Part shown: positions 40,464-62,715 of the stretch, piece by piece
Layout of the letters: each line of letters begins with the position of its first letter
Position numbering within the stretch: position 1 is the stretch's first letter
Source of the DNA: an uncultured virus (IMG/VR IMGVR_UViG_3300034280_000588)
Lineage: Duplodnaviria > Heunggongvirae > Uroviricota > Caudoviricetes
Virus record (IMG/VR): IMGVR_UViG_3300034280_000588
Length of the DNA: 62,942 nt
Direction: 5' to 3' (one strand)
The notes under the pieces: generated by a model
Databases searched by the model: none
What the model was told of the DNA's origin: nothing
Seen by the model: only the letters and a program-made list of their open reading frames with translations
Made by a program: the position numbers and the translations under genes

Positions 40464-40491
40464 ATACGTTTGGTTTTTATTTTGTTTGTAT

Positions 40492-40503
40492 AATTTAATA
40501 TAC
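40492..40503 (-). promoter_or_regulatory. Putative late-promoter motif (GTATATTAAATT)
   Basis: Motif copy 28 nt upstream of the scaffold-MCP unit. Confidence 0.55.
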
Positions 40504-40574
40504 GATTTAAACTCTAAAAATTTAAAAAACTAAAATCTTAAAACACCTAAGGCATGGATTATAGAGCTATGATT

Positions 40575-43325
40575 TTATTTTTTCTTTTCAGAATTCTTTG
40601 AAACATCATATTTGTTCTTATTTTCTCTAGCTATTTCTAGCTGCTTATCAGCAATTTCTTTTTGAGTTTGAAGCTTTTCTCTCTCAATTCCAAGCTTTTG
40701 ACTATTAAATTGATTCTTATTCACCTCACTTTCTCTTTTGAAATTCATGGTGTCCTGATACTGCTGTTGTTTTCTAATATCCTCCATGGCATCAAGATAA
40801 TCAGACTGTTCATTCTTGTTTATATCCACCTGTGCACCATAGCCAGATGCTCTAATCTGTGCTTCCATAAGCCTTGCTTGCCTATCTTTATCAGCCTCTT
40901 CAGATTTAAACTGCATTTGCATCTGCATTTGTTTCTCTTGAGAAGCAATCTGCTCTTGTTGCATTTGTTGTTGTTGCTGCTGCTCAGCTTGTTTTTGAGC
41001 AAGCGTTTTCTCCTCAGCTGCTTTAAGAACACCTGTAAGCTCAGCAATAGACTCAGATTTAATCACATTTCCAAGATCATATATAGAAGCACCTGTAGTG
41101 TTGTTATTGATTGCCAAAGACTTAAGCTGCTCCATCACTGCCCTAGAATTGGTCTTAGTGGTACAGAATATGTTAATGTCTCTCATTAAAAGGTTTGTTC
41201 CATTAATCTGAAAGTTAACCTTTTCGTCTGCACCTGTTACATATTGAAGACGAAGACTGGGCTTTTTAGAGTTGTAATACTGAGCTAAGTCAGTTCTCAT
41301 CTGATGCACACGCGGCATGAGGTTGTCACTATGCTGTATAAAGTATTGTTCTGTTTGAGCATAAGAAGCATTCATTGCTTGCTCTACAGCTGTAGCAGTT
41401 TGCTGTTGGGCTATCTGTGCACCCATTCTTTGCTGATTCAAACCTATCACCTCAAATGCTTGGTTCTTAAAATACTGAGCAAGTTGTATCCTAGACATCA
41501 ACCTCTGGGTTTGCTCTAGATTTAGCACTTGATAATGCTGGAAGTTTAATGCATTCTCTGTATTTGTAATAGAGGTGTCTAAGGGTAGCATTTGGAAGTT
41601 CTTCATTGCTACATATGCTTTAGCCAAGTTGTTCTTGCCCCAGTCTTCTCCAAGTGAGTGACGAGGAAGAGCATTCTGATCTAGCATAATAACAGTGCCA
41701 AGTTCATCCACAAGGATGTCAGCAATCTGATTATTTACAATGTTATATCCAATTTGGAAGGGTTTCATCAAATCCACCAGACTTACAGACCTTGTATTTC
41801 TATCACCAAAAATTGATCCTTCTACAGGAAGCTTGCAGCCATAAATGGTGTGGTCTCCTTTAAACTGAAAAGGAAGTCTTCCAGGCTTACCACCATGAAG
41901 GCCAAGATAGATGGGGTTAATACCACCTGGGTTATTCATACCCCAGAATGTAGGTCTGTTAGGACCAATTTTAATACCACCCCAAACCTCATTAATCCAA
42001 ATCCAATCAACATGCTCACCAAAGACAAGATTATCTTTTGTCTTTTGTTTATATATTGCAGTGTTATACTGTGGCTTATCTGTAATTTTGTAATCCTGAG
42101 ATATGATTTCCTGACTTAATTCTCCTTGGTCTGAAATTTTTGTAAGGTGGCCCACTTTTCTTTGAGACTTCCAATAAATAGTTGACACCCTGAGCATATA
42201 GCTTTTACCAAAATCCTGTAGATCTTCTGAATCAGATAGAATCCACTGAACAATATCGCCAGTTCCAAGCTTGCTATCATACAGAGAAGTGAACTGCCTA
42301 TAAGCCAATGAAGGCATTTGGGTGTTCCATTCATGAGTTCTTGTAGGGTCATAGTAAGTTCCATCATTTTGATATCCTTGTACGGCATAGCCAGCTGAAC
42401 GTATAGGATAGATGACCTCAAGTGCTTCTAGTTGCTCTTGTGTCATCATCCATCCATATTTGTCTATAACATCTGAAACACTCATCATATCTGTCTTACC
42501 TATCCAGTTACCATCAGAAACATATCTAATATCTGGAGACTTATGATAGAATGTAAGTAGAGGATTCCATAGTTCTACATCATAATCATCTTCATTCATC
42601 TTAAAATGCCAAAACTCTCTGTCTGTAATTAGCATATCTCTAAATGCTCTTTCTTCTAGTTCCTGCATTTTAAAACGCTCTTCATCTACAGCCATTTGAT
42701 GAGAAGCCCACTCCTCAATCATTGATCTATAATCTTTTCTAAAAAACTCCTCTATCTCAGGAAGTTTTTTAAGATTGTCAGGAGACATTGCTTTTTGAGC
42801 TTCCTCATCTTCCAAGTCCATTCCTTGATTTAACATCTCAATCAGCATCTTCCTTTCAGCACCTTGAAGAAGCACATCCTCTATCATCTTGCGCTTCTCC
42901 TCTAACATCTCATTGTATGACATGTCATCCACCGCTCTAAACATAATCCTAGAACTACGTTTAGAAAACTCATTGGTGAGAACATTAATTACATTAGGAA
43001 TAATGGGGTAGAACTTAAGCTCATATGCAGAGACATCTTCTTTAGTGAGTGTTTCTATGAGATCTGCCATCTCATTGTCTTCCTCCACTATATAGTCTTG
43101 TTTATCTATAATGCCTCTTGCCAGCTTGTAGTTTTTGGAAAGTCTGCGTGCATTTCTACGCAGTTGTCTCATGCCTTGCCACTCTAACCAATCCAGGTTC
43201 CAGGCTCTCCACTCATCATCCTTTTCTTTATCTGATAAAAACTGAATAGGCTGGGTGAGTGTACCCATCTTATTATATTCAGCTTTTTTACCAGCTTTAA
43301 GATCAAGTGCGTTATATATTTGCAT
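40575..43325 (-). CDS. Portal protein
   Basis: 916 aa; FYPIIPNVINVL, WIWINEVWGGIKIG, SLVDLMKPFQIGYNI; Gln-rich C-terminal barrel; directly after terminase. Confidence 0.85.
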   Translation of the reverse strand: MQIYNALDLKAGKKAEYNKMGTLTQPIQFLSDKEKDDEWRAWNLDWLEWQGMRQLRRNARRLSKNYKLARGIIDKQDYIVEEDNEMADLIETLTKEDVSAYELKFYPIIPNVINVLTNEFSKRSSRIMFRAVDDMSYNEMLEEKRKMIEDVLLQGAERKMLIEMLNQGMDLEDEEAQKAMSPDNLKKLPEIEEFFRKDYRSMIEEWASHQMAVDEERFKMQELEERAFRDMLITDREFWHFKMNEDDYDVELWNPLLTFYHKSPDIRYVSDGNWIGKTDMMSVSDVIDKYGWMMTQEQLEALEVIYPIRSAGYAVQGYQNDGTYYDPTRTHEWNTQMPSLAYRQFTSLYDSKLGTGDIVQWILSDSEDLQDFGKSYMLRVSTIYWKSQRKVGHLTKISDQGELSQEIISQDYKITDKPQYNTAIYKQKTKDNLVFGEHVDWIWINEVWGGIKIGPNRPTFWGMNNPGGINPIYLGLHGGKPGRLPFQFKGDHTIYGCKLPVEGSIFGDRNTRSVSLVDLMKPFQIGYNIVNNQIADILVDELGTVIMLDQNALPRHSLGEDWGKNNLAKAYVAMKNFQMLPLDTSITNTENALNFQHYQVLNLEQTQRLMSRIQLAQYFKNQAFEVIGLNQQRMGAQIAQQQTATAVEQAMNASYAQTEQYFIQHSDNLMPRVHQMRTDLAQYYNSKKPSLRLQYVTGADEKVNFQINGTNLLMRDINIFCTTKTNSRAVMEQLKSLAINNNTTGASIYDLGNVIKSESIAELTGVLKAAEEKTLAQKQAEQQQQQQMQQEQIASQEKQMQMQMQFKSEEADKDRQARLMEAQIRASGYGAQVDINKNEQSDYLDAMEDIRKQQQYQDTMNFKRESEVNKNQFNSQKLGIEREKLQTQKEIADKQLEIARENKNKYDVSKNSEKKK

Positions 43326-43407
43326 GATTATGAATAAGTTATGGTGGTAAATACAATATTACCAGTCCATGTGCTGGTGAACAAATAGTTCATATTAACA
43401 GTGTATG

Positions 43408-45600
43408 TCATCTTATGTTCTTAAAGGCATTTCTTTTAGGAGCCATGGATAATCCGCTATGAGAACTTCCAATATGCCTAAATGGATTATAATTTAATTT
43501 ACTAAATTTCTTTGAGTTTTCCAAATTATTATGCTTAACTTCTATGCGCTTAGATAAACCTCTATTTGACTGTTGCACCTTAGCAAAAGCTATTAATGCA
43601 CAGAATGCCACCAGCCTATCCACGTTAAGCCCATCTCTGTATGCTTGCATTTCCTTTAGAAGCATTGGGTCAGGGATTCTCTCCACCCCATAAATGGTCT
43701 TCACTATTGTACCATCAGGCAAGGTTTCATGGTCAAGCTCTTCTTGTAAAAATTCTATGCCATATGATAGAACAGTGCCTTTAAAAAGTGTGCCCACGTT
43801 CTTCCAGCCATACTGCTGAAATACATTTCTGTTTGCACCTATATCTTTTAAGAACAATATCATGTCTTTGGGAACCAGATAACGCTGCTTCTTCTTAGAT
43901 ATCATGTATTGTATAAAAAGAGCTACGTTATTTTCCACTAAAGTCCAAGCATTATACCATTCTATAAGAAGTTCTAAACGCTCATGTGTTTTGTTGATGT
44001 CATCAAACCTACCACACCAGCTAGCTACAATAGCATCTCTTTCTATAACATTCTTCACCTTACCATCCCCGTCATCTGTTATCACCTCTACAGGATTCTT
44101 GTAAACATATATGGAACAAAGAGAGTCTGATGTTGTGGTCTTACCTTCTCCTACAGGATCTATAGAGGCATAATACATTCCAAAGGCTGGATCTTTGTGA
44201 GGACGTTCGTATATACATATCACCCCCTCTTTATTTTCTGTTTTCTTAGAAAGAGGAAACTCAGAAATAGGAATCTTTCTTGATTCAGTGGCAATTATCT
44301 TTCCTTCAGCATTTCTACTAACATCTAAATATTCTACAGGATAGTTTTTCTCAGATATTCTCTGGAGCTGTTTAGAAACAAGATGAGGAGGAAACACACT
44401 CACCTTTCTTGTAGCAAATGCTTCCTGAATAGTTCGTGGATGCTGGGATATTTCTAGCTGGTAGGCTTCAGGAGAAAGATCTTTCTTTAGTTTTTCAAAT
44501 TCTTTGTTTAATGCTTCTAAAGCTTCTTCCACCAAAGAGTTTCCATAGTCGTCTATATAGGGAGGCATGGACCACTGCTCTGGAATAAACAGACCAGTGA
44601 CCCCTATTGTACCATCCCCATCTATAAGATCTGACTCCACCCCATAGAAACCATTTACATCAGGATTAAGAATGTATTCTTTCATGGGTTCACACTGATC
44701 CAGGTCACCCACTGATCCTGCTGCAATAAATTGTCCTGTAATAATATGCCCTGATTTTAGGGCAGGTTTCATAAACCCATAAGTGTCATCCATCTTTGGA
44801 GCAATACCAGCTTCCTCATGAAAGAAATATGTAACTGGTCCACCGACACCGTTTGTAGGATCTTTTTCAAAAGAATAAGAGTTTATTGTAGATTTTAAAC
44901 CTCTGTATGTATCCCTGTTGTTAATCCTCACTTTAATCTGCTGTTGCCATGCCCCCACCTTGTCTGGTTCAGCAGGTCTATACCATGCAGTGTGCTCATT
45001 AAGGAAATTCTTATATTCATTTAGAAACTTCCAGGATCCTTTCTCGTTAATGTAATCTTTAAGACTTGCGCCTATTTTCAACACAGCACCCTCTTCAAAA
45101 TACCACTGGTTAATAAGCTTAGCCATGTGAAAATAAGAAGAAGCTATCTGACGTTTCTTAAGAATAATAACATGCTTATAGTGCAACTCTGCTAATATCT
45201 CATATAGTGCCATGTGATATTGAGCATCCCTCACCTTGGCAAAGTCAAACCTTTTTTCTTCCTTGTCATATATGGGAAGAAAGTTCAACCACATGTAATA
45301 ATCTCTAGAAAGGTACCAAGTGTTGGTATTATTTTTTACAATTATTCCATTTCGACACTTGTTCTTTTGATCATCCCAATATGCAATAAAGTCTTTTGTC
45401 TTTACAGGAGCTGCACAGTAAAATCTTTGTTTTTGAAACTTCCTTCCCTCAGCATTGAATATCAGTGTACTTTCGTCAAATGCATACTCACCAGGTTGTT
45501 TGAACAGAGGAACAAGAAAGTCTCTAAACTCCTCACGCGTAGCAAACTCTGTAGTGGTCCATTGATCATTTGAATATGTAGGTACACTTATGTAACTCAT
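43408..45600 (-). CDS. terL: Terminase large subunit
   Basis: 730 aa; Walker A-like LKKRQIASS, Walker B FFHEEAG, nuclease IDPV...SDS...VENN...DRLVA. Confidence 0.9.
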   Translation of the reverse strand: MSYISVPTYSNDQWTTTEFATREEFRDFLVPLFKQPGEYAFDESTLIFNAEGRKFQKQRFYCAAPVKTKDFIAYWDDQKNKCRNGIIVKNNTNTWYLSRDYYMWLNFLPIYDKEEKRFDFAKVRDAQYHMALYEILAELHYKHVIILKKRQIASSYFHMAKLINQWYFEEGAVLKIGASLKDYINEKGSWKFLNEYKNFLNEHTAWYRPAEPDKVGAWQQQIKVRINNRDTYRGLKSTINSYSFEKDPTNGVGGPVTYFFHEEAGIAPKMDDTYGFMKPALKSGHIITGQFIAAGSVGDLDQCEPMKEYILNPDVNGFYGVESDLIDGDGTIGVTGLFIPEQWSMPPYIDDYGNSLVEEALEALNKEFEKLKKDLSPEAYQLEISQHPRTIQEAFATRKVSVFPPHLVSKQLQRISEKNYPVEYLDVSRNAEGKIIATESRKIPISEFPLSKKTENKEGVICIYERPHKDPAFGMYYASIDPVGEGKTTTSDSLCSIYVYKNPVEVITDDGDGKVKNVIERDAIVASWCGRFDDINKTHERLELLIEWYNAWTLVENNVALFIQYMISKKKQRYLVPKDMILFLKDIGANRNVFQQYGWKNVGTLFKGTVLSYGIEFLQEELDHETLPDGTIVKTIYGVERIPDPMLLKEMQAYRDGLNVDRLVAFCALIAFAKVQQSNRGLSKRIEVKHNNLENSKKFSKLNYNPFRHIGSSHSGLSMAPKRNAFKNIR

Positions 45601-45791
45601 AACTCTTTGAGTTTGTCAACATCTCCTTTGTGTTTACTTACTAGACTAATAAGAGTTTCAATATTGCTGCTTCTTAATATTTCTGCAGTGGTATAATCAC
45701 TCCAATATTCATTATAAAGATCTCTAGGAATTGCTGCCCACTGAGAAGTGTATATGTTATAATGAAACACCCAATTTTGTAAATGCTCCAT
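45597..45791 (-). CDS. Hypothetical protein
   Basis: 64 aa; ATGA overlap with terL. Confidence 0.65.
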   Translation of the reverse strand: MEHLQNWVFHYNIYTSQWAAIPRDLYNEYWSDYTTAEILRSSNIETLISLVSKHKGDVDKLKEL

Positions 45792-45792
45792 G

Positions 45793-46893
45793 TTATTCAG
45801 TTAAATAGTCAATCCAAATTTGTTTTGCTCTTCTAGAAAACCTTCTTAAGAATTTTTTATTTTGTTCAGCATTAGCATCTGAATCATTATAAATGTTATA
45901 AAGAGTGGATGCAATATCTCTAGAGTCTGTTGTATCTGCAAAAGATTTTTTATCAATCCAATCAATTTCAGAAGATGTCACCATTGGAACACCCTGGCTA
46001 ATCAAATCTGCTGTAACAAGATTGAATGTTTCAGACAAAGACACTTGCATACCAATGTCCATCTGACGACAAATCTGCAAAAAGGTTTCTTTATCATACC
46101 AGTCATGCTTAACAAGAACATGACCCTTTGATGCAAGAGAGTTAAACAAGCTTTCCAGGTTTCTTAATATAGACTCCCCTCTTTGTTCCACTCTAGTGAC
46201 ATTGATATGGAAGCGAAGCTTTTTACCAATCTTTTCTGTAAACATCACAGCTGCCATTGCCTGAATAAGATGATTCTTCAAAGGACGAATTGCCCCAAAG
46301 CAAGCAATATCAATATGTGTTTTATTCTTATTTATATCTTTTTCATTAAAAGTTGTGGGATAGTAGTTAGGAAGATAAAGTACTTTTTCTCTCATCTTTT
46401 TCTGAGAAATATCATCAAAGAGTTGAAAATAAAACTCCATATCTTTCTCCATTCTTCTAGAGTTTACAGCCACATAAACATTGTCAATTAACAAATATCT
46501 ATATAGCCAATTAAAACTCACTCCCTCACTTGCAATAAAAGGAATCTCACTATGCACACGAATAATCCATTCTACAGTGGGATGGAGAGCTTTAAGAACC
46601 TCCAATTTTTCAGGAACCACCCACAGTGCTTCAATAATAACATGTGTGGGTTTGTATAAAGCCACTTCTCTGTCAATGTCATTGTTATCTACAACAACAA
46701 CCAGTTTGCTAGAAAAACCAAATGTTTCATCTAACATTTCTGATACATAGCTTGCAGAATTTAATAATCCTGTTGTAAGGATTTGACCACTGCTGTATTC
46801 AAGACCAGCAGAATAATCATCAATGTCATTATGCAACTCTCTTTGCTTAAGGATGAAAAGAATTTTTTTCTTTTCAATTTTTTTTCTACTCAT
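45793..46893 (-). CDS. GT-B fold glycosyltransferase (GT4-like)
   Basis: FGAIRPLKN and QVSLSETFNLVTADLISQGVPMVTS (E-x7-D) motifs; IRVHSE. Confidence 0.75.
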   Translation of the reverse strand: MSRKKIEKKKILFILKQRELHNDIDDYSAGLEYSSGQILTTGLLNSASYVSEMLDETFGFSSKLVVVVDNNDIDREVALYKPTHVIIEALWVVPEKLEVLKALHPTVEWIIRVHSEIPFIASEGVSFNWLYRYLLIDNVYVAVNSRRMEKDMEFYFQLFDDISQKKMREKVLYLPNYYPTTFNEKDINKNKTHIDIACFGAIRPLKNHLIQAMAAVMFTEKIGKKLRFHINVTRVEQRGESILRNLESLFNSLASKGHVLVKHDWYDKETFLQICRQMDIGMQVSLSETFNLVTADLISQGVPMVTSSEIDWIDKKSFADTTDSRDIASTLYNIYNDSDANAEQNKKFLRRFSRRAKQIWIDYLTE

Positions 46894-46913
46894 TTTTTAT
46901 AAAAGTTTAGGGG

Positions 46914-47426
46914 TTATTGATCGTATGCCAGGTTTTGTCCTCCTCTTACGCTAGACTGTTGTTCATCCTGAAGGTCTTTGTAAACCCCTTTGAATGATTG
47001 TCTTACAGCATCAAATCTCTCTGCTATTCTAAGGATGGCTGTTGCTGATCCATCTCTTCCAGAGGTCACTTGTTCTGTAGCCATGAATGTGGCCATGTTG
47101 TCCAATGCAATTTTAATTCCTTGATAGGCTCTGTATGTAGGAGTTTCATACATCTTTTTGCACATTGCCAGTGCTTTTACAATTACATCTTCATCCACAC
47201 TAAAGTCTGCATCTATTTCTTTAAGGATGAGTTCTTCCTTGTCTTGCTCTAAAATATCAAAAAAAGGATTGAGATCTGGGTTGGGACAGGTCATGTAAAA
47301 CAGATAGGAGTATATTTTAAGGTGGTCTTCAGGAAACTCATCCATCACATCCTTAAGAAACTTAAGAGTGTAACAATGTTCTGATGGTGTCACCTTACCT
47401 CCCTGTATATCAAATAGTCTAATCAT
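46914..47426 (-). CDS. Conserved hypothetical protein (terminase small subunit candidate)
   Basis: Start reassigned to ATG 47426 (ATGA overlap); helical, ends SVRGGQNLAYDQ; upstream of terL; function by position only. Confidence 0.45.
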   Translation of the reverse strand: MIRLFDIQGGKVTPSEHCYTLKFLKDVMDEFPEDHLKIYSYLFYMTCPNPDLNPFFDILEQDKEELILKEIDADFSVDEDVIVKALAMCKKMYETPTYRAYQGIKIALDNMATFMATEQVTSGRDGSATAILRIAERFDAVRQSFKGVYKDLQDEQQSSVRGGQNLAYDQ

Positions 47427-47722
47427 TTGCTTTCTTTTAAAAAGTCCATGTTCCTCACGGCTCCTTTTGGCCATCTAGATTTTTTAACTTTCCAATCTTC
47501 TGGAATAGGAGGTGTCAAACTTTCTCCTGTTGTAGGATTACCATACACAATCAAATCATTTTGATCCACTGTACGTATAAGTCCTGAGTGATATATACGT
47601 ACAATAAACTGTGGATTTGAAGTGACACTACCTGTAATCATAAACATTACAAGGCACTCCCCCAGCTCTTTGGCATAAGCATCAAAGGGATTGTGTATTT
47701 CATGTACAGTTTGCGTAATCAT
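47423..47722 (-). CDS. Hypothetical protein
   Basis: 99 aa ORF in operon. Confidence 0.6.
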   Translation of the reverse strand: MITQTVHEIHNPFDAYAKELGECLVMFMITGSVTSNPQFIVRIYHSGLIRTVDQNDLIVYGNPTTGESLTPPIPEDWKVKKSRWPKGAVRNMDFLKESK

Positions 47723-47726
47723 GCTT

Positions 47727-47972
47727 TTATTTATTATGGGGATTCATAGGCTTGAGGGGAGTGTCATTTCCTCTAGTTTTAACACCTATCAACTTGTCTT
47801 CATACTGTTTACCATACACACTCACCAGTAACACTTCTTTTGCCAACTCATCCCTATGGATGGTGTAGGTTCCCTTTGTAGACTGGTATTTAAAAACAAC
47901 CTCATCAGGAAGTGTTCCTTCCTTGTGCTTCTGTATAAGCTCAATGAGGGTGGGTATTTTTTCTTCTGACAT
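47727..47972 (-). CDS. Hypothetical protein
   Basis: 81 aa ORF in operon. Confidence 0.55.
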   Translation of the reverse strand: MSEEKIPTLIELIQKHKEGTLPDEVVFKYQSTKGTYTIHRDELAKEVLLVSVYGKQYEDKLIGVKTRGNDTPLKPMNPHNK

Positions 47973-47973
47973 C

Positions 47974-48786
47974 TTATTTCTTTTGATCTCTCAACCAGTT
48001 TACAATATCTATTGCCTCTTTCTTGAGATAGGGGAGATCATAATCCACCACATCTGTTACAATGGGGTCTCCATTTGTGTCAAGGGCTGTAATGGGGTTG
48101 TCAAACTTATCACGCCCCGCCTCTTCAAAAATAATATGGTGGATGCTCAGACTACCAGGCTTAAGTTTTGGATTGTGCTTAAGAATAATAAACATATACA
48201 AACTAAGCTGTAGGGCATAATGATTAAGATGACAATCATCAAGATGTGCCACAGGAGCACTCATCTTTTGTGTTATTCCTTCCCAATTTGTATACCCCTC
48301 TGTCTTGATTTCCTTGTTTGTCTTGTAGTCTGTAATGTGCACTTCCCCATTCACCACTTCTACAAGGTCAGACTGTCCACATATGTTAGCAGACTTCAAA
48401 TATACCATGTGCTCAGGATAGACACCATCTGTCAACTTTTGATTGGGGGAATGTTTAATTCCATCAATTTCGATGGGTTTAAAAATCTTTATCATGCTTC
48501 CCCTTCTCTCCATTGTTTCAAATGAACATATATCAGACTCCCTGCAATTGTGATACCATGTACCCAATGTAGTGGCTCTGTTAGCCTCAGCCTTCCATGC
48601 ATGTTTGATTTCCTCAGGTGTCATACCATACCACTTACTCTTCCTATTTCTAGAAGACTTCTCTGCTATTTTATCAGCATCAAATGGTTGCTTAAAATTA
48701 GATATTACACTTGTAACACTTGACCAATCTGCCCCATCCTCACTTCTGTATTTGTGATCGTGGGGTGTAAATTTCAATATACTCAT
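47974..48786 (-). CDS. PD-(D/E)xK (Cas4/RecB-like) exonuclease
   Basis: SVTSVI, GTWYH, ICGQSDLV...ITDYKTNK, YALQLSLY; start reassigned to ATG 48786 (ATGA overlap). Confidence 0.8.
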   Translation of the reverse strand: MSILKFTPHDHKYRSEDGADWSSVTSVISNFKQPFDADKIAEKSSRNRKSKWYGMTPEEIKHAWKAEANRATTLGTWYHNCRESDICSFETMERRGSMIKIFKPIEIDGIKHSPNQKLTDGVYPEHMVYLKSANICGQSDLVEVVNGEVHITDYKTNKEIKTEGYTNWEGITQKMSAPVAHLDDCHLNHYALQLSLYMFIILKHNPKLKPGSLSIHHIIFEEAGRDKFDNPITALDTNGDPIVTDVVDYDLPYLKKEAIDIVNWLRDQKK

Positions 48787-49112
48787 ATTCCTAATTTTTT
48801 GTTTAACATTTCCTCCTCCTCTTCTGTCATTTCTGCCTTCCACTTCTTAAGAGGACAATCAGAACTTAAACTCCTTGTCTTTAGGGACAAACTGCACCCA
48901 CATCCCCCCTTCTTTTCATTACAGCATGGTTGTGTTCCAGGCATTGTACATCCCTCCCCTGTGACATCATACAGCTTGCAGTTTTTACAAACAAACATCC
49001 TGTATTCTGCTACAGCTTCCACATGCTCTTTCTTAAATATGGAATTAGCAATACCTTCTATAATTTCACTCTTGTGTTTCCAGATCTTGAAGATGTTGGC
49101 TCCCAGATTCAT
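48783..49112 (-). CDS. Zn-binding Cys-rich protein
   Basis: RMFVCKNC...GCGCSLSLKTRSLSSDCPLKKW. Confidence 0.65.
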   Translation of the reverse strand: MNLGANIFKIWKHKSEIIEGIANSIFKKEHVEAVAEYRMFVCKNCKLYDVTGEGCTMPGTQPCCNEKKGGCGCSLSLKTRSLSSDCPLKKWKAEMTEEEEEMLNKKLGI

Positions 49113-49467
49113 TTTTGTTTTGTTTAATAAGTTCTTTACGTTGGTTTTCTTCTTCCATCATTGTCTTAAGACTCCTTAAGTCAAAAAGCTTTTCTGCTAT
49201 CTTAAACCTTTCTGTTATTTTTTGAAGCCCCTTGAGTTTGTTTACATCTTCCCACTTTTCCAGGTGTTCAATCTTCTCATCTATTTTCCAATGTTTCACT
49301 ACAAAATCACCAAGGTTGGTGACATGCACACGCTGGTGTTTCAATGAAGAAAGACTCATCCTCACCTCTTGCCAGTAGAACAGCATCAAATCCCCCACCA
49401 AACTTTCAGAAAGAGACAGCTTCTCAGCCACCTCAGGTATAAAATCCTTAGCTTTCTTTGGCCTCAA
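49066..49467 (-). CDS. HU/IHF-like DNA-binding protein
   Basis: FIPEVAEKLSLSESLV...RVHVTNLGDFVV matches HU helix + beta-strand pattern. Confidence 0.6.
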   Translation of the reverse strand: MRPKKAKDFIPEVAEKLSLSESLVGDLMLFYWQEVRMSLSSLKHQRVHVTNLGDFVVKHWKIDEKIEHLEKWEDVNKLKGLQKITERFKIAEKLFDLRSLKTMMEEENQRKELIKQNKNESGSQHLQDLETQE

Positions 49468-49819
49468 GAGAAAGTATTTTGAGATTCAAAAGGATGTTTC
49501 CAGAAGATATAATGTTCATCCCAGGATTTATAAATATTTTCTTTTTGTTCTTTCCCTCCTTAACAATAAGACTTTTTTTCTCACACTTTGTAATGGAGTT
49601 CCTTGCACTCTGACAAGAAGAAAATATTTTTTTATCATACACCTTAGAACAAAAAGATGTAAGCTCTTGCTCACCCTCTAAAGCTAAATAAGTGAGGCAG
49701 TCTAAATCTGCCTCACTTAATTGTATCTTGGAAACATAACAATGCGTAACTATCTGGTACTTAGTGACTTCCCAGGTGTTCATCACCGCCTTCTTTTCCA
49801 CTTGACTTACAACTGCCAT
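49448..49819 (-). CDS. Putative winged-HTH protein
   Basis: 123 aa; QLSEADLDCLTYLA...SARNSITKCEKKSLIVK. Confidence 0.5.
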   Translation of the reverse strand: MAVVSQVEKKAVMNTWEVTKYQIVTHCYVSKIQLSEADLDCLTYLALEGEQELTSFCSKVYDKKIFSSCQSARNSITKCEKKSLIVKEGKNKKKIFINPGMNIISSGNILLNLKILSLEAKES

Positions 49820-49821
49820 TT

Positions 49822-50175
49822 TTATTTGGAAGTTTTAAGTTTTCTAGAAGGCTTTTCTGCTGCCTCTTCTTTAGGACCAGGAATCAACACTTCATCACCC
49901 AGCTTTACGCCAGCATCAACAAGCTCAGGATTTGCATCCAAATCTTCTTGTGTAATGGTGTGAGGCACAGTTCCTTGTGGAGGAGTTTGCTGTTGAGGGT
50001 TGGTGATTTGTGCTACAAAAGAAAGAGCCTTGAGCTCTTCTGCTCTGGCAACAGCAAGCTTGGTGTTAAGCTCCTGCAGTTCAAGCTGCACTTTCTTTAC
50101 ATCAATTTGCTCTTGGAAAAACTGCATGAGTTCTTCTTTAGTGGGAGGCGTTTGCTCATGTACTTGTTCTGACAT
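49822..50175 (-). CDS. Hypothetical protein
   Basis: 117 aa; coiled coil then HTITQEDLDANPELVDAGVKLGDEV. Confidence 0.6.
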   Translation of the reverse strand: MSEQVHEQTPPTKEELMQFFQEQIDVKKVQLELQELNTKLAVARAEELKALSFVAQITNPQQQTPPQGTVPHTITQEDLDANPELVDAGVKLGDEVLIPGPKEEAAEKPSRKLKTSK

Positions 50176-50191
50176 ATTATTGGTTTTTGGT

Positions 50192-50494
50192 TTACAAATC
50201 TAAAATAGAATCATCACCCTTCTCATTAACATCAACAGTGTTATACTTTATAAACTTCTTAAAGAACTCCTTATAGTTGGTGTCTATGATATAACTATCC
50301 CCTGTGTTGGTGAGAACAGTGGTGCAGTTATAAGAAATAGAATCTTCATCATCAGAGCTAAGCTTAGCTGCATCCACTATAGACATATGAAACACAAAGG
50401 GCATCCACTTACCAACATCCTCTAGCCCTATAAGATCTGCTGTTTTAACATCCATTGCGTGGCACTGTACGTTGCATTCGTGAATTATGTTCAT
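50192..50494 (-). CDS. Hypothetical protein
   Basis: 100 aa ORF. Confidence 0.6.
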   Translation of the reverse strand: MNIIHECNVQCHAMDVKTADLIGLEDVGKWMPFVFHMSIVDAAKLSSDDEDSISYNCTTVLTNTGDSYIIDTNYKEFFKKFIKYNTVDVNEKGDDSILDL

Positions 50495-50506
50495 AATATA
50501 ATATAC
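50495..50506 (-). promoter_or_regulatory. Putative late-promoter motif (GTATATTATATT)
   Basis: Motif copy abutting the ATG at 50494. Confidence 0.5.
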
Positions 50507-50566
50507 TAAATAAGTTTAAACTTAACAAATGTATGATATAAATTTTTGGTTAATATAATTAACTTA

Positions 50567-51220
50567 TCAACACTTATCATATTCATAGTCCAATATCTTT
50601 CCCACCAGGTCAGATCTGTGGTTGTGCTTAAGCTTCACCCACTTAATCTCACTTATCCTCTTAGAAAGCTCTATTATATAGGAGAGCCCGTTAAAAGCAT
50701 CCCTAATGTCCTTTTGCTCATTGTCCCCATTAATAATAATTTTACCATCCTTTCCAAGCCTTGTGAGGATGGCTAACATCTCTGCCTTTGTAAGGTTTTG
50801 CGCCTCCTCTACAATAAGCACATCATCTATTGTCTTCCCCCTAATAAACTGTACAGGGAGAGCATTAACCTTCTTACCCGTAATAAGCTCATCTATCTTC
50901 ACCTTATCATAGCACTTAAGAAGGTTTTCCTGGAAGGCCTCCAGATAGGGGTCAAACTTCTCACTAAGAGACCCAGGGAGAAACCCCAGAGAATGTCCCA
51001 CCTCTACAGCTGCCCTTGTAACTAATATCTGCTCACACTCCTTCTTAAACAAAAAGTCAAGGGCTGTCACTGCTGACACAAGAGACTTACCACAACCTGC
51101 CCTCCCTGTAATAACCACTATCTGATTCTCCCTAATAATCCTCTTAGCTTCCTTCTGCTCATCATTAAGAGTGATCTTATACTTAATCTCATTCTTCCTT
51201 TCTCTATTAGACTCTTTCAT
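50567..51220 (-). CDS. phoH: PhoH-family ATPase
   Basis: GRAGCGKS, LGFLPGSLSEK, FIRGKT, EEAQN, LTRLG, NGDNEQKD, HRSDLV. Confidence 0.92.
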   Translation of the reverse strand: MKESNRERKNEIKYKITLNDEQKEAKRIIRENQIVVITGRAGCGKSLVSAVTALDFLFKKECEQILVTRAAVEVGHSLGFLPGSLSEKFDPYLEAFQENLLKCYDKVKIDELITGKKVNALPVQFIRGKTIDDVLIVEEAQNLTKAEMLAILTRLGKDGKIIINGDNEQKDIRDAFNGLSYIIELSKRISEIKWVKLKHNHRSDLVGKILDYEYDKC

Positions 51221-51239
51221 ATAATACTATTTTAGTTAC

Positions 51240-51251
51240 AATACAATATAC
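51240..51251 (-). promoter_or_regulatory. Putative late-promoter motif (GTATATTGTATT)
   Basis: Motif copy 19 nt upstream of phoH, at the start of the minus-strand arm. Confidence 0.5.
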
Positions 51252-51372
51252 AACTAACCCCCCACACTTCCTAATTTGGAAACTACCCCCTAGTATGTTA
51301 GAGGGTGTGATGGCCTCCTACCCAACTGCTCCCCTCCTTAAATTTAGCAGCACTAAACCCCTGCTTTATTTT

Positions 51373-51636
51373 ATGAAAGGAATGATGACTTTAAAACAAT
51401 TCTTGGCATTTATCGGTGTAATGGAATTAACGTTTATTAAATTAAACGGCCGTGCTTTTTGTGGTACTCCTGTCGGTACAATATTTAAAGCAAAGGACTT
51501 TGATGAAAAAGGTAAACGATTTGTAACAGTACACCGTGGTGGTAAGGATAAAGCCGGCAATGACTATTCCCATTTGGAAGGTACATTATGGCTTGTAAAT
51601 TCCGCTGCACAAGTGGACGGCACTTACTCCGAGTAA
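51373..51636 (+). CDS. First gene of plus-strand (early) arm, hypothetical
   Basis: Start reassigned to ATG 51373 (MKGMMTLKQF...); followed by hairpin and terminator. Confidence 0.65.
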   Translation: MKGMMTLKQFLAFIGVMELTFIKLNGRAFCGTPVGTIFKAKDFDEKGKRFVTVHRGGKDKAGNDYSHLEGTLWLVNSAAQVDGTYSE

Positions 51637-51672
51637 GGCCACACCCGTAAGGGTGTATTGACGGAGTGTACC

Positions 51673-51721
51673 AACAACTTAACTAATTGTTATACAAATA
51701 GTTAGTTAAGTTGTTTTTTTT
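51673..51721 (+). terminator. Intrinsic terminator
   Basis: AACAACTTAACTAA...TTAGTTAAGTTGTT stem followed by T run. Confidence 0.7.
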
Positions 51722-52445
51722 CCTTTCATAAATTGGGTTAGGGTAGTGTGAATGTGTGGTAGTAATCCACCTCTCATTCCTTTAACTGCTTGATTCTCAC
51801 TATCTTATAAAAAAGTTGGTGCGGATAGGATGGCTATAATTCTTTAAGGTTGATAAACCTTGACAATCCTGTGGGGCTACTATGTGGTTCTTTTTAGATA
51901 TTATCAGTATCTATTAAGTATCAAACACTCTGATAAAGTGTAATCACAAGTTAGTGCAGACTATAAAATCAGGAACTTTAACAATAGGCTTGAGAATCTA
52001 TTGTAGTTTAATGGATATACAAATCCTGTTTAAAACTATTATCCAAATTGAAAAAATTCCATCAATTTGCAATTGCTAGAGTAGTGGAATACTCTTATTA
52101 AGGTCTATATAGTGCGCTATAGAAACCAACTGTTTGTAGAGATAGGCAATTTCTCTTTAATGCATATTGGTAACATGCATGAATACATTCAGTTTAATTT
52201 AAAGCAAGCCTGAGCCTAAATCAAGCCAGGAAGTAATCTACCAAAGATTGCGAGTCCTCAACAAGCTGTTAAATCAGCCAACATTCTTTTTTAGTAGTTA
52301 TTTTTTCTTATATGGGATAAAGCATAGAAAAAAATCTACACCTCTTGAAGGTTACCAAAGAGTATAAATAAATGGTAGCTCACGTGACCATTAATAGAAA
52401 CAACCTTAAAACCTTTCTCTGTAGGTATATACAGATACAATAGTT

Positions 52446-52685
52446 ATGATAACACTTACACAAGCAGTGATGAACCAAGTGGTCATTAATGAATATAATA
52501 ACTACAATGAAGCAATGGAACATTTAGACCAACAAGGTGTTGTACATCTAGGGTGGTTAAATGCAGGTATTCACATACCAAAGCATTTAAACTGTCAGAA
52601 GGTGTATTCTAACCGTTCAGGTAGTTCTTGTCTTTATTGTGATCCTATATATAGAATCTCTTATTCTGTAGATATGGGAGATTAA
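52446..52685 (+). CDS. Hypothetical protein
   Basis: 79 aa ORF followed by hairpin AGGTTGG...CCAACCT. Confidence 0.5.
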   Translation: MITLTQAVMNQVVINEYNNYNEAMEHLDQQGVVHLGWLNAGIHIPKHLNCQKVYSNRSGSSCLYCDPIYRISYSVDMGD

Positions 52686-52920
52686 GTCTTTAAGGTTGGT
52701 CTCTCTCTGTAAAGGGAAGGCCAACCTCTATTCTAGGTTATTGGTAATCCTTGGAAACCATTTGGTATAGTCAGTATACACCAACAATAAGTAATCTGAC
52801 ATTTATGACATCAAATTTTGATTCCCTGGAAAGGGTTGTACAGCTTGTAGGCCATTGTACGTAATTAAAAACAACCTTCTGATGATGCTAACAGCATTAG
52901 TGCTAAACAACACTATAAAC

Positions 52921-53090
52921 TGTTTGTTTAATGCACCACAACTCACTTCCCAAGGGTGAGCAGATGTACACACTTATAAGAGATACAGTAACTAGATAGT
53001 AATAGGCTAGTTACCACCGTAACAGGTATCTCATTAGACAATCAGGAAGCTGAGCGTCTTAGTGTACATCTGAGTGCAGAGGGGACAACA
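52921..53090 (+). ncRNA. Twister ribozyme-like RNA (type P1, long branched P5)
   Basis: P1 UUGUU/GACAA, L1 UAA, P2 UGCA/UGCA, P4 CUCAC/GUGAG, L4 (U)UCCCAAGG, P5 CAGAUGUACAC/GUGUACAUCUG, 3' GAGGG; T1 CCC/GGG and T2 CC/GG are possible. Confidence 0.65.
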
Positions 53091-53143
53091 TGAGGCAGGC
53101 TTCTTGTAGCTTCTAGACTACAGGAAGCAGCCTCATTTTTTTT
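53091..53143 (+). terminator. Intrinsic terminator
   Basis: TGAGGC..GCTTCTTGTAG/CTACAGGAAGC..GCCTCA stem plus 8 T. Confidence 0.75.
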
Positions 53144-53339
53144 CAAGAATAGTAGATAGCGCTGTCTCTATTCTATATTAAGTAAGTCGCTAACTAGCAG
53201 ATTGGTGCTCGGCCAAAAGTTCCCAAGACTTACTTAACGAAACCATACCCAGTATTGTAAACAAGGGACTGGGTTAATTTTTGTGTTGTTGGTTACTTCC
53301 ATTATAACAAGTATTATGTAACCAAATAAAAAAAACAAC

Positions 53340-53708
53340 ATGGAAAAGATCTTTAACGGCACACCACATGCCATAAATGTGGTAGAAGGTGCTACTTTTA
53401 ACAGTAGCATTAGAAAGTACACAGGTGGTACTGTTGTACTAAGCATACCATCTAATGGTATGTTAAATGCCAAAATCTCTGCAGTAGACTTACCTGCAGT
53501 AGATGGTATTCCAGTGTTTGGTAAGTCCATCATTGGAGTAGATGCATTGCCTGAAGGCTTTGACATCTACATAGTGTCTGCTCTCTATTCATCTGCTGCA
53601 AGGGCAGCAGGTATGGATATGAGTAAGATCTTCACTGTGGCTGATCCAGTGATGAATGATGATGGTACTACATTTGTAGGATGCAGAGGCATATGTCCTG
53701 CATTCTAA
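53340..53708 (+). CDS. Conserved phage hypothetical protein
   Basis: 122 aa; NGTPHAIN, IYIVSALY, DDG..VGCRG motifs; A-rich leader. Confidence 0.7.
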   Translation: MEKIFNGTPHAINVVEGATFNSSIRKYTGGTVVLSIPSNGMLNAKISAVDLPAVDGIPVFGKSIIGVDALPEGFDIYIVSALYSSAARAAGMDMSKIFTVADPVMNDDGTTFVGCRGICPAF

Positions 53709-53714
53709 TCAGCC

Positions 53715-53742
53715 TGACCTAAGCATGTCATTAAACTGCTTA
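53715..53742 (+). ncRNA. Compact H-type pseudoknot in 3' UTR
   Basis: S1 UGAC/GUCA, S2 UAAGCA/UGCUUA, then T run. Confidence 0.45.
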
Positions 53743-54002
53743 TTTTTTCACACATTAAAATCAAAAATATGCACTGTCCTATGGGAAGGGGGTTGAGTGT
53801 GCATATAAACAAGAGCAACCCTGCTTGTTTATTTTTAAAATACGCGCTGCCAAAGCCCTTGTAGTAGTCATCCTACTACTGGTTCTTTTCATCTGGCCAG
53901 ATGATACACTATAAGAGGGACAGTACAGCTTTGCTTTGAAGACTGCATTTAGCCAGTGCAAGTGAGTGGAGAGTCATGCTCTCAAAGTCTTCTTTTTAAA
54001 AT

Positions 54003-54230
54003 ATTTCCCAATGCACATATCTCACGTGGTGTAACCACCTGATTAATATATCCTGCCATTTATGGTCTCATAGGATGAAAACTTTAATCAGCTCCCAAGG
54101 GTGAGCAGTTGTAATTCTTAATTAGTATTAGCAAGTACTCAATCTATCCCTTAATCCGTAAAGCAGTGTTCCTGTAGGATGCAAGATAGATGTTATGCTG
54201 TGCGGATTACAACTGTGTGCAGAGGGATAA
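54003..54230 (+). ncRNA. Second twister-like RNA with large L4 insertion
   Basis: AAUGCAC, CUCAC, UCCCAAGGGUGAGCAG and CUGnGUGCAGAGGG shared with 52921..53090; P5 stem has different sequence but still pairs. Confidence 0.5.
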
Positions 54231-54408
54231 TTTGTGATTATTTGTAATAGTCTCCTTTAAGAAGGCTGAAAACAGAGTTTTTAGCACTGGAGTTTGAATA
54301 GGGGATTTAACGCAGAACCAGCTATTACAAGTAATTGCAAAAAAGATTAAATAGGTGAATCTTACTACCAATAAGTGTAAGAATAATTAAAAATTTAAAA
54401 TTAATCCA

Positions 54409-54765
54409 ATGAGAGGAAACACTAATGCTCTAACAGAGTTGAAAACATATCTCGATGACAAAAGCGCTGTAAAATGTGCTGAAATTTTGTATCGTCCATG
54501 TAGTCTTTGGGAGGAAAATATTCCTCAAAACAAAGACTTATTCCTTCCAATAGGATACACACAAGAAGAATTTAATTCTTTTTTAAAAGAATTAGATTTT
54601 AATTATGATTCTGGCTACGGCGGCCAAGAATTATATGGTGTGATATGGTTGGAGGATGGTACATGGATGAGCCGTGGAGAGTATGATGGCTCAGAGTGGT
54701 GGGAACACAATGTAGTTCCTGAAATACCCAATCACTTATTTTCTCACAAACAAATTAAAATATAA
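54409..54765 (+). CDS. Conserved phage hypothetical protein
   Basis: YDSGYGGQELYGVIWLEDGTWMSRGEYDGSEWW motif common in phages. Confidence 0.7.
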   Translation: MRGNTNALTELKTYLDDKSAVKCAEILYRPCSLWEENIPQNKDLFLPIGYTQEEFNSFLKELDFNYDSGYGGQELYGVIWLEDGTWMSRGEYDGSEWWEHNVVPEIPNHLFSHKQIKI

Positions 54766-54767
54766 CT

Positions 54768-54908
54768 ATGATGAAAAAACTTTTTGTTTTTCTACTAATT
54801 GCTTGCAGCTTAATTAGTTGCAAGCAAAGTCAGCATGAATGTGTTGACAAAACACACGACAAATGCGATGGTATTTGTGAGTGTGACGGCTTTGAATGTT
54901 CTATTTAA
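54768..54908 (+). CDS. 46-aa Cys-rich lipoprotein (not in ORF track)
   Basis: MMKKLFVFLLIACSLIS-CKQSQHECVDKTHDKCDGICECDGFECSI. Confidence 0.65.
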   Translation: MMKKLFVFLLIACSLISCKQSQHECVDKTHDKCDGICECDGFECSI

Positions 54909-54926
54909 CTCACTAAAACCAAACAT

Positions 54927-55169
54927 ATGCAGTATCACATTTTTCAATCTGTTGGACCAAGAAGGTTCACAGAAACGGATGTACAACCAAGGGAATACGC
55001 AGGATTTGTAGAAGCAACTTCTTTAGAAGATGCTTATGCAAAATCCCAAAATGTTGATTGTGATTGGAATCCACATCAACCATGTCGTTCCACGTCAGTG
55101 GGAGATGTAATCCAAGATGACACTGGATTTTACATGGTGCTTGATAAAGGATTTCGTCATTTATCATAA
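54927..55169 (+). CDS. YodL-like protein
   Basis: RSTSVGDVI motif followed by FYMVLDKGF. Confidence 0.55.
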   Translation: MQYHIFQSVGPRRFTETDVQPREYAGFVEATSLEDAYAKSQNVDCDWNPHQPCRSTSVGDVIQDDTGFYMVLDKGFRHLS

Positions 55170-55276
55170 TTGTCATAAACTCCAGGGAGAGAATAATCAT
55201 CAACCGTAGTAAATATGCGCGTTTAGGTTATTCTCTCTACGAGTTTTTAAATGCAAAACCAAAAATCACATTATAT

Positions 55277-55501
55277 ATGGGAAAGTTTAAAGATGAAGGC
55301 AATGCAGCACTAGCCTTGGCAGAAGAATGTGCTGAAGTTATACAGGTGATAAACAAACTGTATAGGTTTGAAGGGGCACATTGGGATGAAATCCCTGAAG
55401 GTAAAGAGAAAACCAGATGGGAACAGTTGTCAGAAGAAATGGTTGATATAATGTATCAGTGGGAAAGATTAAAATCTTTAAGGTATGAAAAGATTAGTTG
55501 A
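55277..55501 (+). CDS. MazG-like NTP pyrophosphohydrolase
   Basis: LAEECAEVIQVINK...LSEEMVDI (ExxE/ExxD). Confidence 0.6.
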   Translation: MGKFKDEGNAALALAEECAEVIQVINKLYRFEGAHWDEIPEGKEKTRWEQLSEEMVDIMYQWERLKSLRYEKIS

Positions 55502-60072: not shown

Positions 60073-60466
60073 GGGGGTGACAGGTATTGACCTGTTAATG
60101 AAGGTGAGTGCACATGTAGACAAAGTAGGAATGTCTTTAAATACCTGCAAACAATAAACGCTAAGACACAATCTGAGCGTGTAGCAGAAGGTGAAGCAAT
60201 CCTTGCTTCTATTTTTGCAGATGAGGCAGTAGCTGCCTGATCACTACGGGGGAGTTATCCCTGGCAACAGAAAATAACATACAGTGGACTTTCCTAGTTT
60301 CACACTTGATAGCCAAAACTAGGTGGTGGAGATGCTGACCAACTGGTTGGTTCCCATAGGGTGCAGATGACGGGGGATCTTTCCTCTTGATTATCAGTAC
60401 TAAACATGTGATACGCTGTGCTCATTGTTCTTAACAGACACCAGGGTTCGATTCCCTGCACCTCCA
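60073..60466 (+). ncRNA. ssrA: tmRNA (phage-encoded)
   Basis: Acceptor GGGGGUG/CACCUCC-A with G3.U70; T-arm CAGGG-UUCGAUU-CCCUG; AUAAAC before resume GCU; tag ORF 60160-60240 AKTQSERVAEGEAILASIFADEAVAA*; CCA not encoded. Confidence 0.93.
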
Positions 60467-60501
60467 CTGATCATGAGGGTTTAAAAACCCGCGAGGTAAA
60501 C

Positions 60502-62548: not shown

Positions 62549-62620
62549 GGTTCTATAGTTTAATGGATAGAACGGTTGCCTTCTAAGCTACAGATCCAAG
62601 TTCGATTCTTGGTGGAACCA
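62549..62620 (+). tRNA. tRNA-Arg(UCU)
   Basis: Acceptor GGUUCUA/UGGAACC; anticodon loop CU-UCU-AA (one U-U mismatch in stem); T-arm CCAAG-UUCGAUU-CUUGG. Confidence 0.9.
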
Positions 62621-62629
62621 CATGCGTAC

Positions 62630-62715
62630 ACTCAGGTGGTGGAACTGGTATACACGCAGCACTTAAAATGCTGTTCTCAGTAATGAGAGTGTGGGTTCGA
62701 TTCCCATCCTGAGTA
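62630..62715 (+). tRNA. tRNA-Leu(UAA)
   Basis: Acceptor ACUCAGG/CCUGAGU; CAGCA-CUUAAAA-UGCUG; long variable arm; T-arm GUGGG-UUCGAUU-CCCAU. Confidence 0.92.

Follow-up and report, generated by a model that had tools for sequence, protein, structure and literature searches.

A predicted twister ribozyme variant with a remodelled core and apparently exchangeable arms in the early region of likely crAss-like phages

The closest described relatives of the element reported here are the type-P1 twister ribozymes (RF03160), which include rice Osa-1-4 and env22. In the portions of the literature on which we draw (PMC5408937, PMC6154101, PMC11662667), their parts follow the order P1-L1-P2-L2-P4-L4 with the termini in P1, and they have U-A-A and G-A-G-G-G in loop L1, U-CCC-AA-G in loop L4 and a 3-bp pseudoknot, T1. 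P2 is formed by four Watson-Crick pairs; the GC/GC pairs of a second pseudoknot, T2, and the top G-C pair of P4 are called near-invariant in a review, which also relays the suggestion that a change in P2 length disturbs the active site (PMC5408937). All the twisters tested in PMC11662667 had a 2-bp pseudoknot of two nucleotides, and imperfections there lowered cleavage. The natural twisters tested tolerate loss of P1, insertions at position 1 of L4 and P5 arms (PMC11662667), P1 is described as dispensable in tested twisters (PMC11662667, PMC5408937), and P5 is present in 1% of annotated twisters (PMC6154101).

Other described systems are more distant. Twister-sister has a vague likeness to our element in secondary structure; however, the available part of the review gives no pseudoknot evidence for it and places its cleavage on the opposite strand (PMC5408937), whereas T1 of our element covaries. 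Hatchet ribozymes (RF02678) have an unrelated fold and, according to the relevant part of PMC6561176, cut at their own 5′ end. Anonymous candidate structured RNAs have been mined from the same IMG/VR virus collection as our locus (PMC10690425); the available main text of that paper does not mention twister or ribozymes, and pieces of the present motif may be among its candidates. A literature search, mostly of titles and the openings of abstracts, returned no paper on the variant family, and members may be present in the original twister alignments, in the PMC11662667 supplements or among the alignments of PMC10690425. As to function, what self-cleaving ribozymes do in bacteria and phages is called largely elusive in PMC6765202, where mRNA processing is mentioned as a suggestion for bacterial twisters.

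The element described here has the same order of parts as the type-P1 twisters, termini in P1, the same L1 and L4 motifs and a 3-bp T1. It also shares the usual place of P5, the place of P3, at which two copies, L001 (1463-) and L045 (1316-; L-numbers are labels of related loci compared with the window), have a hairpin, and a P1 that is weak or absent. It differs in P2, T2, P4 and P5, as set out below. We consider it to represent a family of twister variants missing from Rfam, in which the core is remodelled, some copies are expanded and the arms appear to be exchanged; cleavage is likely.

Genomic setting

The DNA analysed (the window) is a stretch of 62,942 nt taken from a virus record that has 124,942 bases in total. 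The source phage is likely crAss-like, as suggested by a capsid protein with 21-28% identity to capsids of crAss-like and Cellulophaga phages, and by a giant ORF of 5129 aa with a DFDID motif, located outside the window on the - strand (39553-54942 of the whole virus record, G000). We take the DFDID motif to be a mark of the virion RNA polymerase, and the ORF is therefore likely to encode that enzyme. In crAss-like phages, the early genes are transcribed by the virion RNA polymerase, according to the part of PMC10136315 consulted. Because intact relatives of the element also occur on contigs assigned to genome bins of, among others, Chitinophagaceae, Sediminibacterium and Bacteroidia, the comparison suggests that the hosts of these phages are Bacteroidota. 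The window also contains a tmRNA and two tRNA genes on the + strand (60073-60469, 62549-62620 and 62630-62715; Rfam).

The element lies in a mostly non-coding tract, just beyond the switch from leftward head genes to rightward small genes. A hatchet ribozyme (51840-51974, +), a true Rfam member scoring 82.4 bits against a gathering score of 51, lies 950 nt upstream in the same tract and on the same strand, and would likewise form the 5′ end of a downstream RNA (PMC6561176, in part). Hatchet was found in 3 of 32 records with the twister variant, 0.7-1.4 kb upstream of it, and, like P5 of the twister variant, its distal arm varies from one related phage to another. The idea that a phage-encoded RtcB circularises the fragment between hatchet and twister was considered and rejected, since no RtcB was found in the genome (the control was found in 10 of 14 genomes). 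A terminator-like hairpin at 51673-51715 (+) follows a 113-aa ORF and implies a promoter before the hatchet; the Bacteroidota-type promoter motif TAnnTTTG was looked for ahead of the hatchet and none was found.

Other parts of the tract are also shared among phages. A 147-nt stretch at 52236-52382 (+) is 98.6% identical to L078 while the rest of the tract is different, which points to recent module exchange. A 79-aa ORF (52446-52685, +) separates the hatchet from the twister variant; it is conserved at the DNA level in L125, L136 and L141 and has no PHROG match. A second conserved non-coding module (52821-52900, +), with 74-88% identity in L005 and L043 and a final hairpin that shows a compensatory change, has no Rfam match.

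Fold, family and core of the variant

The compact form of the element (class A) extends from P1 to P1 at 52924-53088 on the + strand. The 5-bp P1 (52924-52928/53084-53088; UUGUU/GACAA) is followed by the U-A-A of L1 (52929-52931), where the predicted scissile bond lies between U52929 and A52930 and A52930 is the predicted general acid by homology (PMC11662667, in part). P2 (52932-52936/53074-53078) has five pairs, the fifth, C52936-G53074, being assigned by covariation, and T2 is drawn as the single pair C52937-G52954. P4 (52942-52946/52956-52960) has five pairs plus U52947-G52955, and in loop L4 (52947-52955, U-CCC-AA-G) the CCC at 52949-52951 pairs with GGG 53081-53083 as T1. P5 is an 11-bp stem (52961-52971/53062-53072), whose base differs in this copy from the common form of the family; it carries a multi-helix insert of exactly 90 nt (52972-53061), in agreement with the initial annotation, which had put the extra helices at about that length. 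The GAGGG of L1 (53079-53083) includes G53079, the predicted general base. Every twister part named in that annotation, including the 5-bp P1, U-A-A and GAGGG, was located in the sequence at the position claimed. The region 52900-53150 has a folding z of -6.04, a stability that none of 200 shuffles matched, and the window copy scores 73 bits (E 8e-19) against a model derived from 27 loci that exclude it.

The annotation had also named an Rfam twister covariance model search as a check, and here no twister match was obtained at any threshold tried: neither in the window at gathering, nor between 51200 and 55500 with E values of up to 10 allowed, nor over the whole virus record, where the controls were silent too, so that this last search carries little weight alone. 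The models also found nothing in 20 loci with short inserts and in 5 that are nearly empty. Because copies in which P5 is a bare hairpin or free of an insert (L131, L134 and L166) were missed as well, the insert is not the reason for the miss. The RF03160 gathering score of 67.2 bits was not reached by any family copy scanned, and the same scan did find a canonical type-P1 twister in L034 (2528-2592, +) at 57 bits. That twister lies near variant copies of another phage, as does a pistol ribozyme in L025 (154-213, +; 33.9 bits). Twister-sister likewise gave no Rfam match in the window or in 51200-55500. We therefore regard the element as a twister-type variant outside the Rfam models rather than a standard member of type P1 (RF03160).

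Further readings of the region were rejected. A circular permutation of type P3 or P5 is out, given that P5 is closed and covaries and the chain ends in P1. The CUGAUGA near 52880 was considered as part of a hammerhead, and the internal loop of class B as a hairpin ribozyme; in both cases the required stems are absent and there is no Rfam match.

Related copies were collected from viral sequences. A 16-nt loop word lists at least 121 viral loci, with about 220 viral stretches estimated, and a pattern for other P4 sequences gives 120 further loci. The parsed sets comprise 169 compact copies, 208 copies of both forms and 235 distinct compact copies, these counts being of distinct sequences and not of independent lineages, collected with patterns that constrained portions of the 5′ half. 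The rebuilt twister form appears to be common to over 200 related phage sequences. The 27-locus model finds one or two copies per record in 30 of 32 carrier records. When loci were chosen by a neighbouring core protein, the element was in the same slot in 14 of 22, one of the 14 being partial; this set had 29 loci, of which 7 with less than 2.9 kb of upstream DNA were excluded, and with a query taken from three carriers the rate may be high. A first protein-anchored scan had covered 5 loci only. No cultured carrier was found in the phage collection searched; three cultured or isolate genomes had weak model scores (13-15 bits), and the best of these was inspected by eye and rejected. Five pattern matches in bacterial chromosomes (L447, L448, L450, L460 and L461) were also rejected, the 3′ half being absent in all of them.

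The fold is maintained by compensatory change. Among the 27 aligned copies, 90% of cells are paired, compared with 33-51% in slid controls, and two-sided changes occur in 20 of 29 pairs of P2, P4 and P5 across these related sequences (five of the six pairs in P4), a level reached by none of 500 shuffles. G-U pairs in P5 outnumber A-C mismatches by 61 to 16, which indicates an RNA on the + (transcribed) strand. For T1, copies with a changed CCC were sought and the far 3′ loop, which no pattern touched, was then read: among 235 copies, CCC is matched by GGG in 174 of 178, CAC by GUG in 25 of 25 and CCA by UGG in 26 of 27, and rare triplets give 3 of 4 for CCU/AGG and 0 of 1 for CUC. The catalytic G-A is kept in 228 of 235 copies, the 3′ loop being unconstrained in the parse, and UAA in 231 of 235, a figure partly fixed by the search patterns. 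P1 is more variable: at least 4 bp can form in 53 of 169 copies, against 10.6 with shuffled partners, and 51 of the 169 have no P1. A P1 of at least 4 bp is found in 41 of 52 copies with an A-U pair in T1 and in 53 of 178 with CCC/GGG, as if a stronger P1 compensated for a weaker T1.

The core itself appears to have been remodelled. The initial annotation had read T2 as CC/GG and had placed one extra U in L4; the letters are present in both cases, but covariation suggests that the 2-bp pairing is probably one pair with a longer P2, and U52947 pairs with G52955 in the register that covariation favours. The fifth P2 pair is held in all 208 copies (C-G 171, U-A 35, U-G 2), and the extra-U position pairs with the G52955 position in 205 of them (U-G 179, C-G 21, U-A 5); the first pair of the rival T2, between C52936 and the G52955 position, is broken in seven, all of the expanded form. 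Because these pairs covary and persist, P2 has five pairs by this criterion and T2 is most likely the one pair C52937-G52954. T2 is C-G in 206 of 208 copies and was never seen to covary; no complete element was found among 108 stretches with variants at G52954, so that T2 is not demonstrable by covariation. We infer a P2+T2 stack of 5+1 pairs in place of the usual 4+2, six in total in either case. In compact copies both registers are open and may interconvert, and a 2-bp T2 is possible in the window copy. At the top of P4, where type-P1 twisters have their near-invariant G-C, the variant has a variable pair (C-G 88, U-A 42, A-U 41, G-C 5 and other 4 among 180 copies) plus a Y-R pair.

An expanded form, class B, accounts for 28 of the 208 copies. 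Unlike type-P1 twisters, it has two additional arms within P4 that create a four-way junction, and both arms end in variable sequence. The first arm of class B (for example in L014, L061, L080 and L262) contains a strongly conserved asymmetric internal loop, which is absent from the short arm in the window and is possibly a protein site or a tertiary contact. The window has a class-B copy at 54004-54231 (+), with its extra arms at 54026-54038 and 54039-54091 inside P4 and a P5 insert at 54116-54205. Among the 208 copies, it alone has A as its T2 base (A54017 replaces C), and its CCC at 54007-54009 pairs at probability 1.0 with GGG 54224-54226, which T1 requires; it is thus probably disarmed. 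A CCC just ahead of AA together with an altered T2 base is also found in L005 and L087, as at window 54007-54011, and the 5′ flank of all three would block T1, pointing to recurring self-disarmed forms; L552 and L581 are other disarmed copies in the family. Next to the class-B copy, at 54231-54341 (+), is a P5-only remnant with no ribozyme core; its insert is shared with L092, L052 and L017 and is 84% identical to the P5 insert of the intact L092.

The variant would extend the twister fold to a helix stack of 5+1 in place of 4+2 and to a form with a four-way junction, within a family that numbers hundreds of sequences and escapes Rfam. The family also supplies natural compensatory sets for probing the role of the T2 pseudoknot.

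Inserts of P5

Unlike annotated twisters, every copy of the variant has P5, with 12-200 nt of exchangeable sequence. The inserts are hyper-diverse: 207 of them form 171 clusters, and they range from 12 to about 200 nt or are absent (L131 and L166). Sequence comparison indicates that they appear to be swapped between phages, since among 13 insert pairs that are at least 90% identical, eight are on different scaffolds and four have both flanks at background identity. The same insert is also found in two arms, in P5 of L241 and in a class-B arm of L115 (34 of 35 nt identical). Homologs of the window insert occur on a different scaffold in L170 and L517-L519.

The initial annotation had regarded P5 as the payload of a small RNA. 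This has genuine but moderate support from the movement of inserts between scaffolds and from the pairs that they keep: across 27 pairs of related inserts, pairing survives 18 of the 24 two-sided changes. The window insert (folding z -2.84) differs from that of L170 by 2 two-sided changes, with 0 of 29 pairs broken. The claim is weakened by the one-sided changes, 27 of which disrupt a pair and 36 of which preserve one, by the copies that have no insert, and by the folding of the inserts, which on average is no better than that of neighbouring DNA (mean z -0.94 for 118 insert cores, -0.73 and -0.61 for their flanks). We consider the chances that the insert has a selected function to be about even.

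Several identities for the inserts were explored. Spacers or antisense RNAs were rejected, as no window insert matches its own genome elsewhere. The inserts have no match to coding DNA of the compared loci, and 24 of 270 have a copy outside the parsed slot, always in the tract or in scaffold-like settings. For P5 as a CRISPR-repeat mimic, there was no match to an Rfam CRISPR family, and a literature search gave nothing. A more speculative scenario, which we would rate as doubtful, is that the self-processing twister is a display scaffold: it would excise itself from the earliest transcripts of an infection, its folded body would shield the 5′ end, and its one to three arms would present exchangeable structured RNA domains (at least 171 P5 types among 207) that act as decoys for, or aptamers against, host proteins of defence or RNA decay. 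If the inserts are functional, the family would be a natural modular RNA-delivery scaffold.

Predicted cleavage and its product

Two key questions are: (i) whether the variant cleaves; and (ii) what the cut produces. On the first, the loss of the GC/GC T2 and of the top G-C of P4, the altered P2 length and the absence of P1 in 51 of 169 copies count against activity, and the tolerance of tested twisters for insertions at L4 position 1 and for P5 arms counts in its favour by analogy. Covariation of the stems and of T1, together with the conserved catalytic bases, gives good support to a self-cleaving fold of the twister type. Judged on these comparisons, the isolated element would very probably cleave, and cleavage in its own sequence context is also probable, with less confidence.

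The reservation about context stems from a competing hairpin at 52900-52936 (+), which in nested-only folds covers the 5′ strand of P1, the cleavage site and the 5′ strand of P2. With at least 50 nt of upstream context, pseudoknot-free folds give it a probability of 0.99 and it outcompetes P2; in the same kind of model, the cost of opening it runs from 5 kcal/mol for P2 only up to 12 kcal/mol with all loops free. In the accessible part of PMC11662667, upstream P0 hairpins brought cleavage down to 0.40, and modelling suggests that cleavage of the window copy may be partial, with the hairpin damping it. An upstream off-switch under selection was rejected for want of family-wide support, the P2 probability being below 0.2 in 46 of 152 natural copies and in 50 of 152 upstream-swapped controls.

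On the second question, a predicted intrinsic terminator directly follows the element at 53090-53143 (+), with a long bulged hairpin (53090-53136, -28.4 kcal/mol) and U8 (53136-53143). A simple terminator scan did not list the 53090 hairpin, probably on account of its bulged stem. The initial annotation had proposed that cleavage releases a discrete RNA of about 210 nt; this is plausible for the window copy, with its adjacent terminator and a predicted product of 214 nt, but neither the terminator nor the discrete RNA is general among relatives. In the 141 copies with 198 nt of downstream DNA, an ORF starts within 90 nt in 66 (6-19 in shuffles) and a terminator-like hairpin follows in 13 (2-4 in shuffles; 13 of 168 in upstream windows), so that the general outcome would be an mRNA or a small RNA whose 5′ end is capped by the ribozyme. 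The window insert itself occurs in L517-L519 without the terminator of 53090-53143.

On balance, the explanation that we favour as a whole is a self-cutting remodelled twister that releases a 214-nt, insert-bearing RNA. An early transcript, presumably made by the virion RNA polymerase, would be cut between U52929 and A52930, probably by the twister G/A acid-base mechanism. The product would consist of the ribozyme body and the 90-nt P5 insert, with its 3′ end at the predicted terminator; it would have a 5′-OH, and would be tightly folded, resistant to decay and able to present the insert. Where relatives lack a terminator, the effect of this cut would be to cap an early mRNA. The fold, T1, the 5-bp P2, the conserved catalytic bases, the fixed slot in the early region and the movement of inserts are all drawn from sequence comparison.

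A plausible but less probable scenario is that an active ribozyme only cuts the early transcript, capping or separating mRNAs or destabilising the upstream piece, and that the inserts are tolerated passengers shuffled by recombination between conserved flanks. The downstream ORF starts (66 of 141, with 13 terminators), the variable length or absence of inserts, their mean folding and the mRNA processing suggested for bacterial twisters (PMC6765202, in part) are all consistent with it; however, passengers would not be expected to keep their pairing in 18 of 24 two-sided changes, to persist in core-less remnants such as 54231-54341, or to appear in two different arms, as in L241 and L115, and class B has two more insert-bearing arms. 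It is rather unlikely, in our estimation, that the family cleaves while the window copy is largely off or conditional, with the hairpin at 52900-52936 forming first during transcription and holding the cleavage strand. The stability of that hairpin and the existence of disarmed copies (the second window copy, L552 and L581) argue for this, but the folding model omits T1, T2 and Mg, the window copy has a perfect 5-bp P1 and all catalytic bases, and sequestration is not selected across the family.

The remaining two readings dispense with catalysis. That the twister-derived fold is a non-catalytic scaffold or a protein-binding platform would fit the absence of the usual T2 and of the usual pair at the top of P4, the weak P1 and the lack of an Rfam match, as well as the failure of some structured RNAs near ribozymes to cleave in tests (PMC6765202, in part). 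We consider it improbable, because the general-acid A and general-base G are kept alongside a covarying T1, both copies without the 3′ loop also have a changed L4 triplet, and P1 strength follows T1 strength. Least probable of all is a DNA-level recombination or cassette site, similar to an integron or CRISPR, with inverted repeats acting as single-stranded DNA. Conserved flanks around variable inserts, tandem copies and insert exchange are what such a site would show; yet the excess of G-U over A-C is on the transcribed strand, an RNA pseudoknot with the twister catalytic loop covaries, the inserts match neither their own genome nor coding DNA of the compared loci, and there are only one or two copies per genome.

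For the favoured reading, a self-cutting twister variant with an insert-bearing product, the fixed place at the head of the phage early region and the defined predicted product make a ribozyme role testable. Finally, we note that copies are arranged in tandem, head to tail, in L019, L042, L080, L232 and L455, with GAGGG followed by the next UAA within 0-3 nt; cleavage of these copies would release unit-length RNAs.
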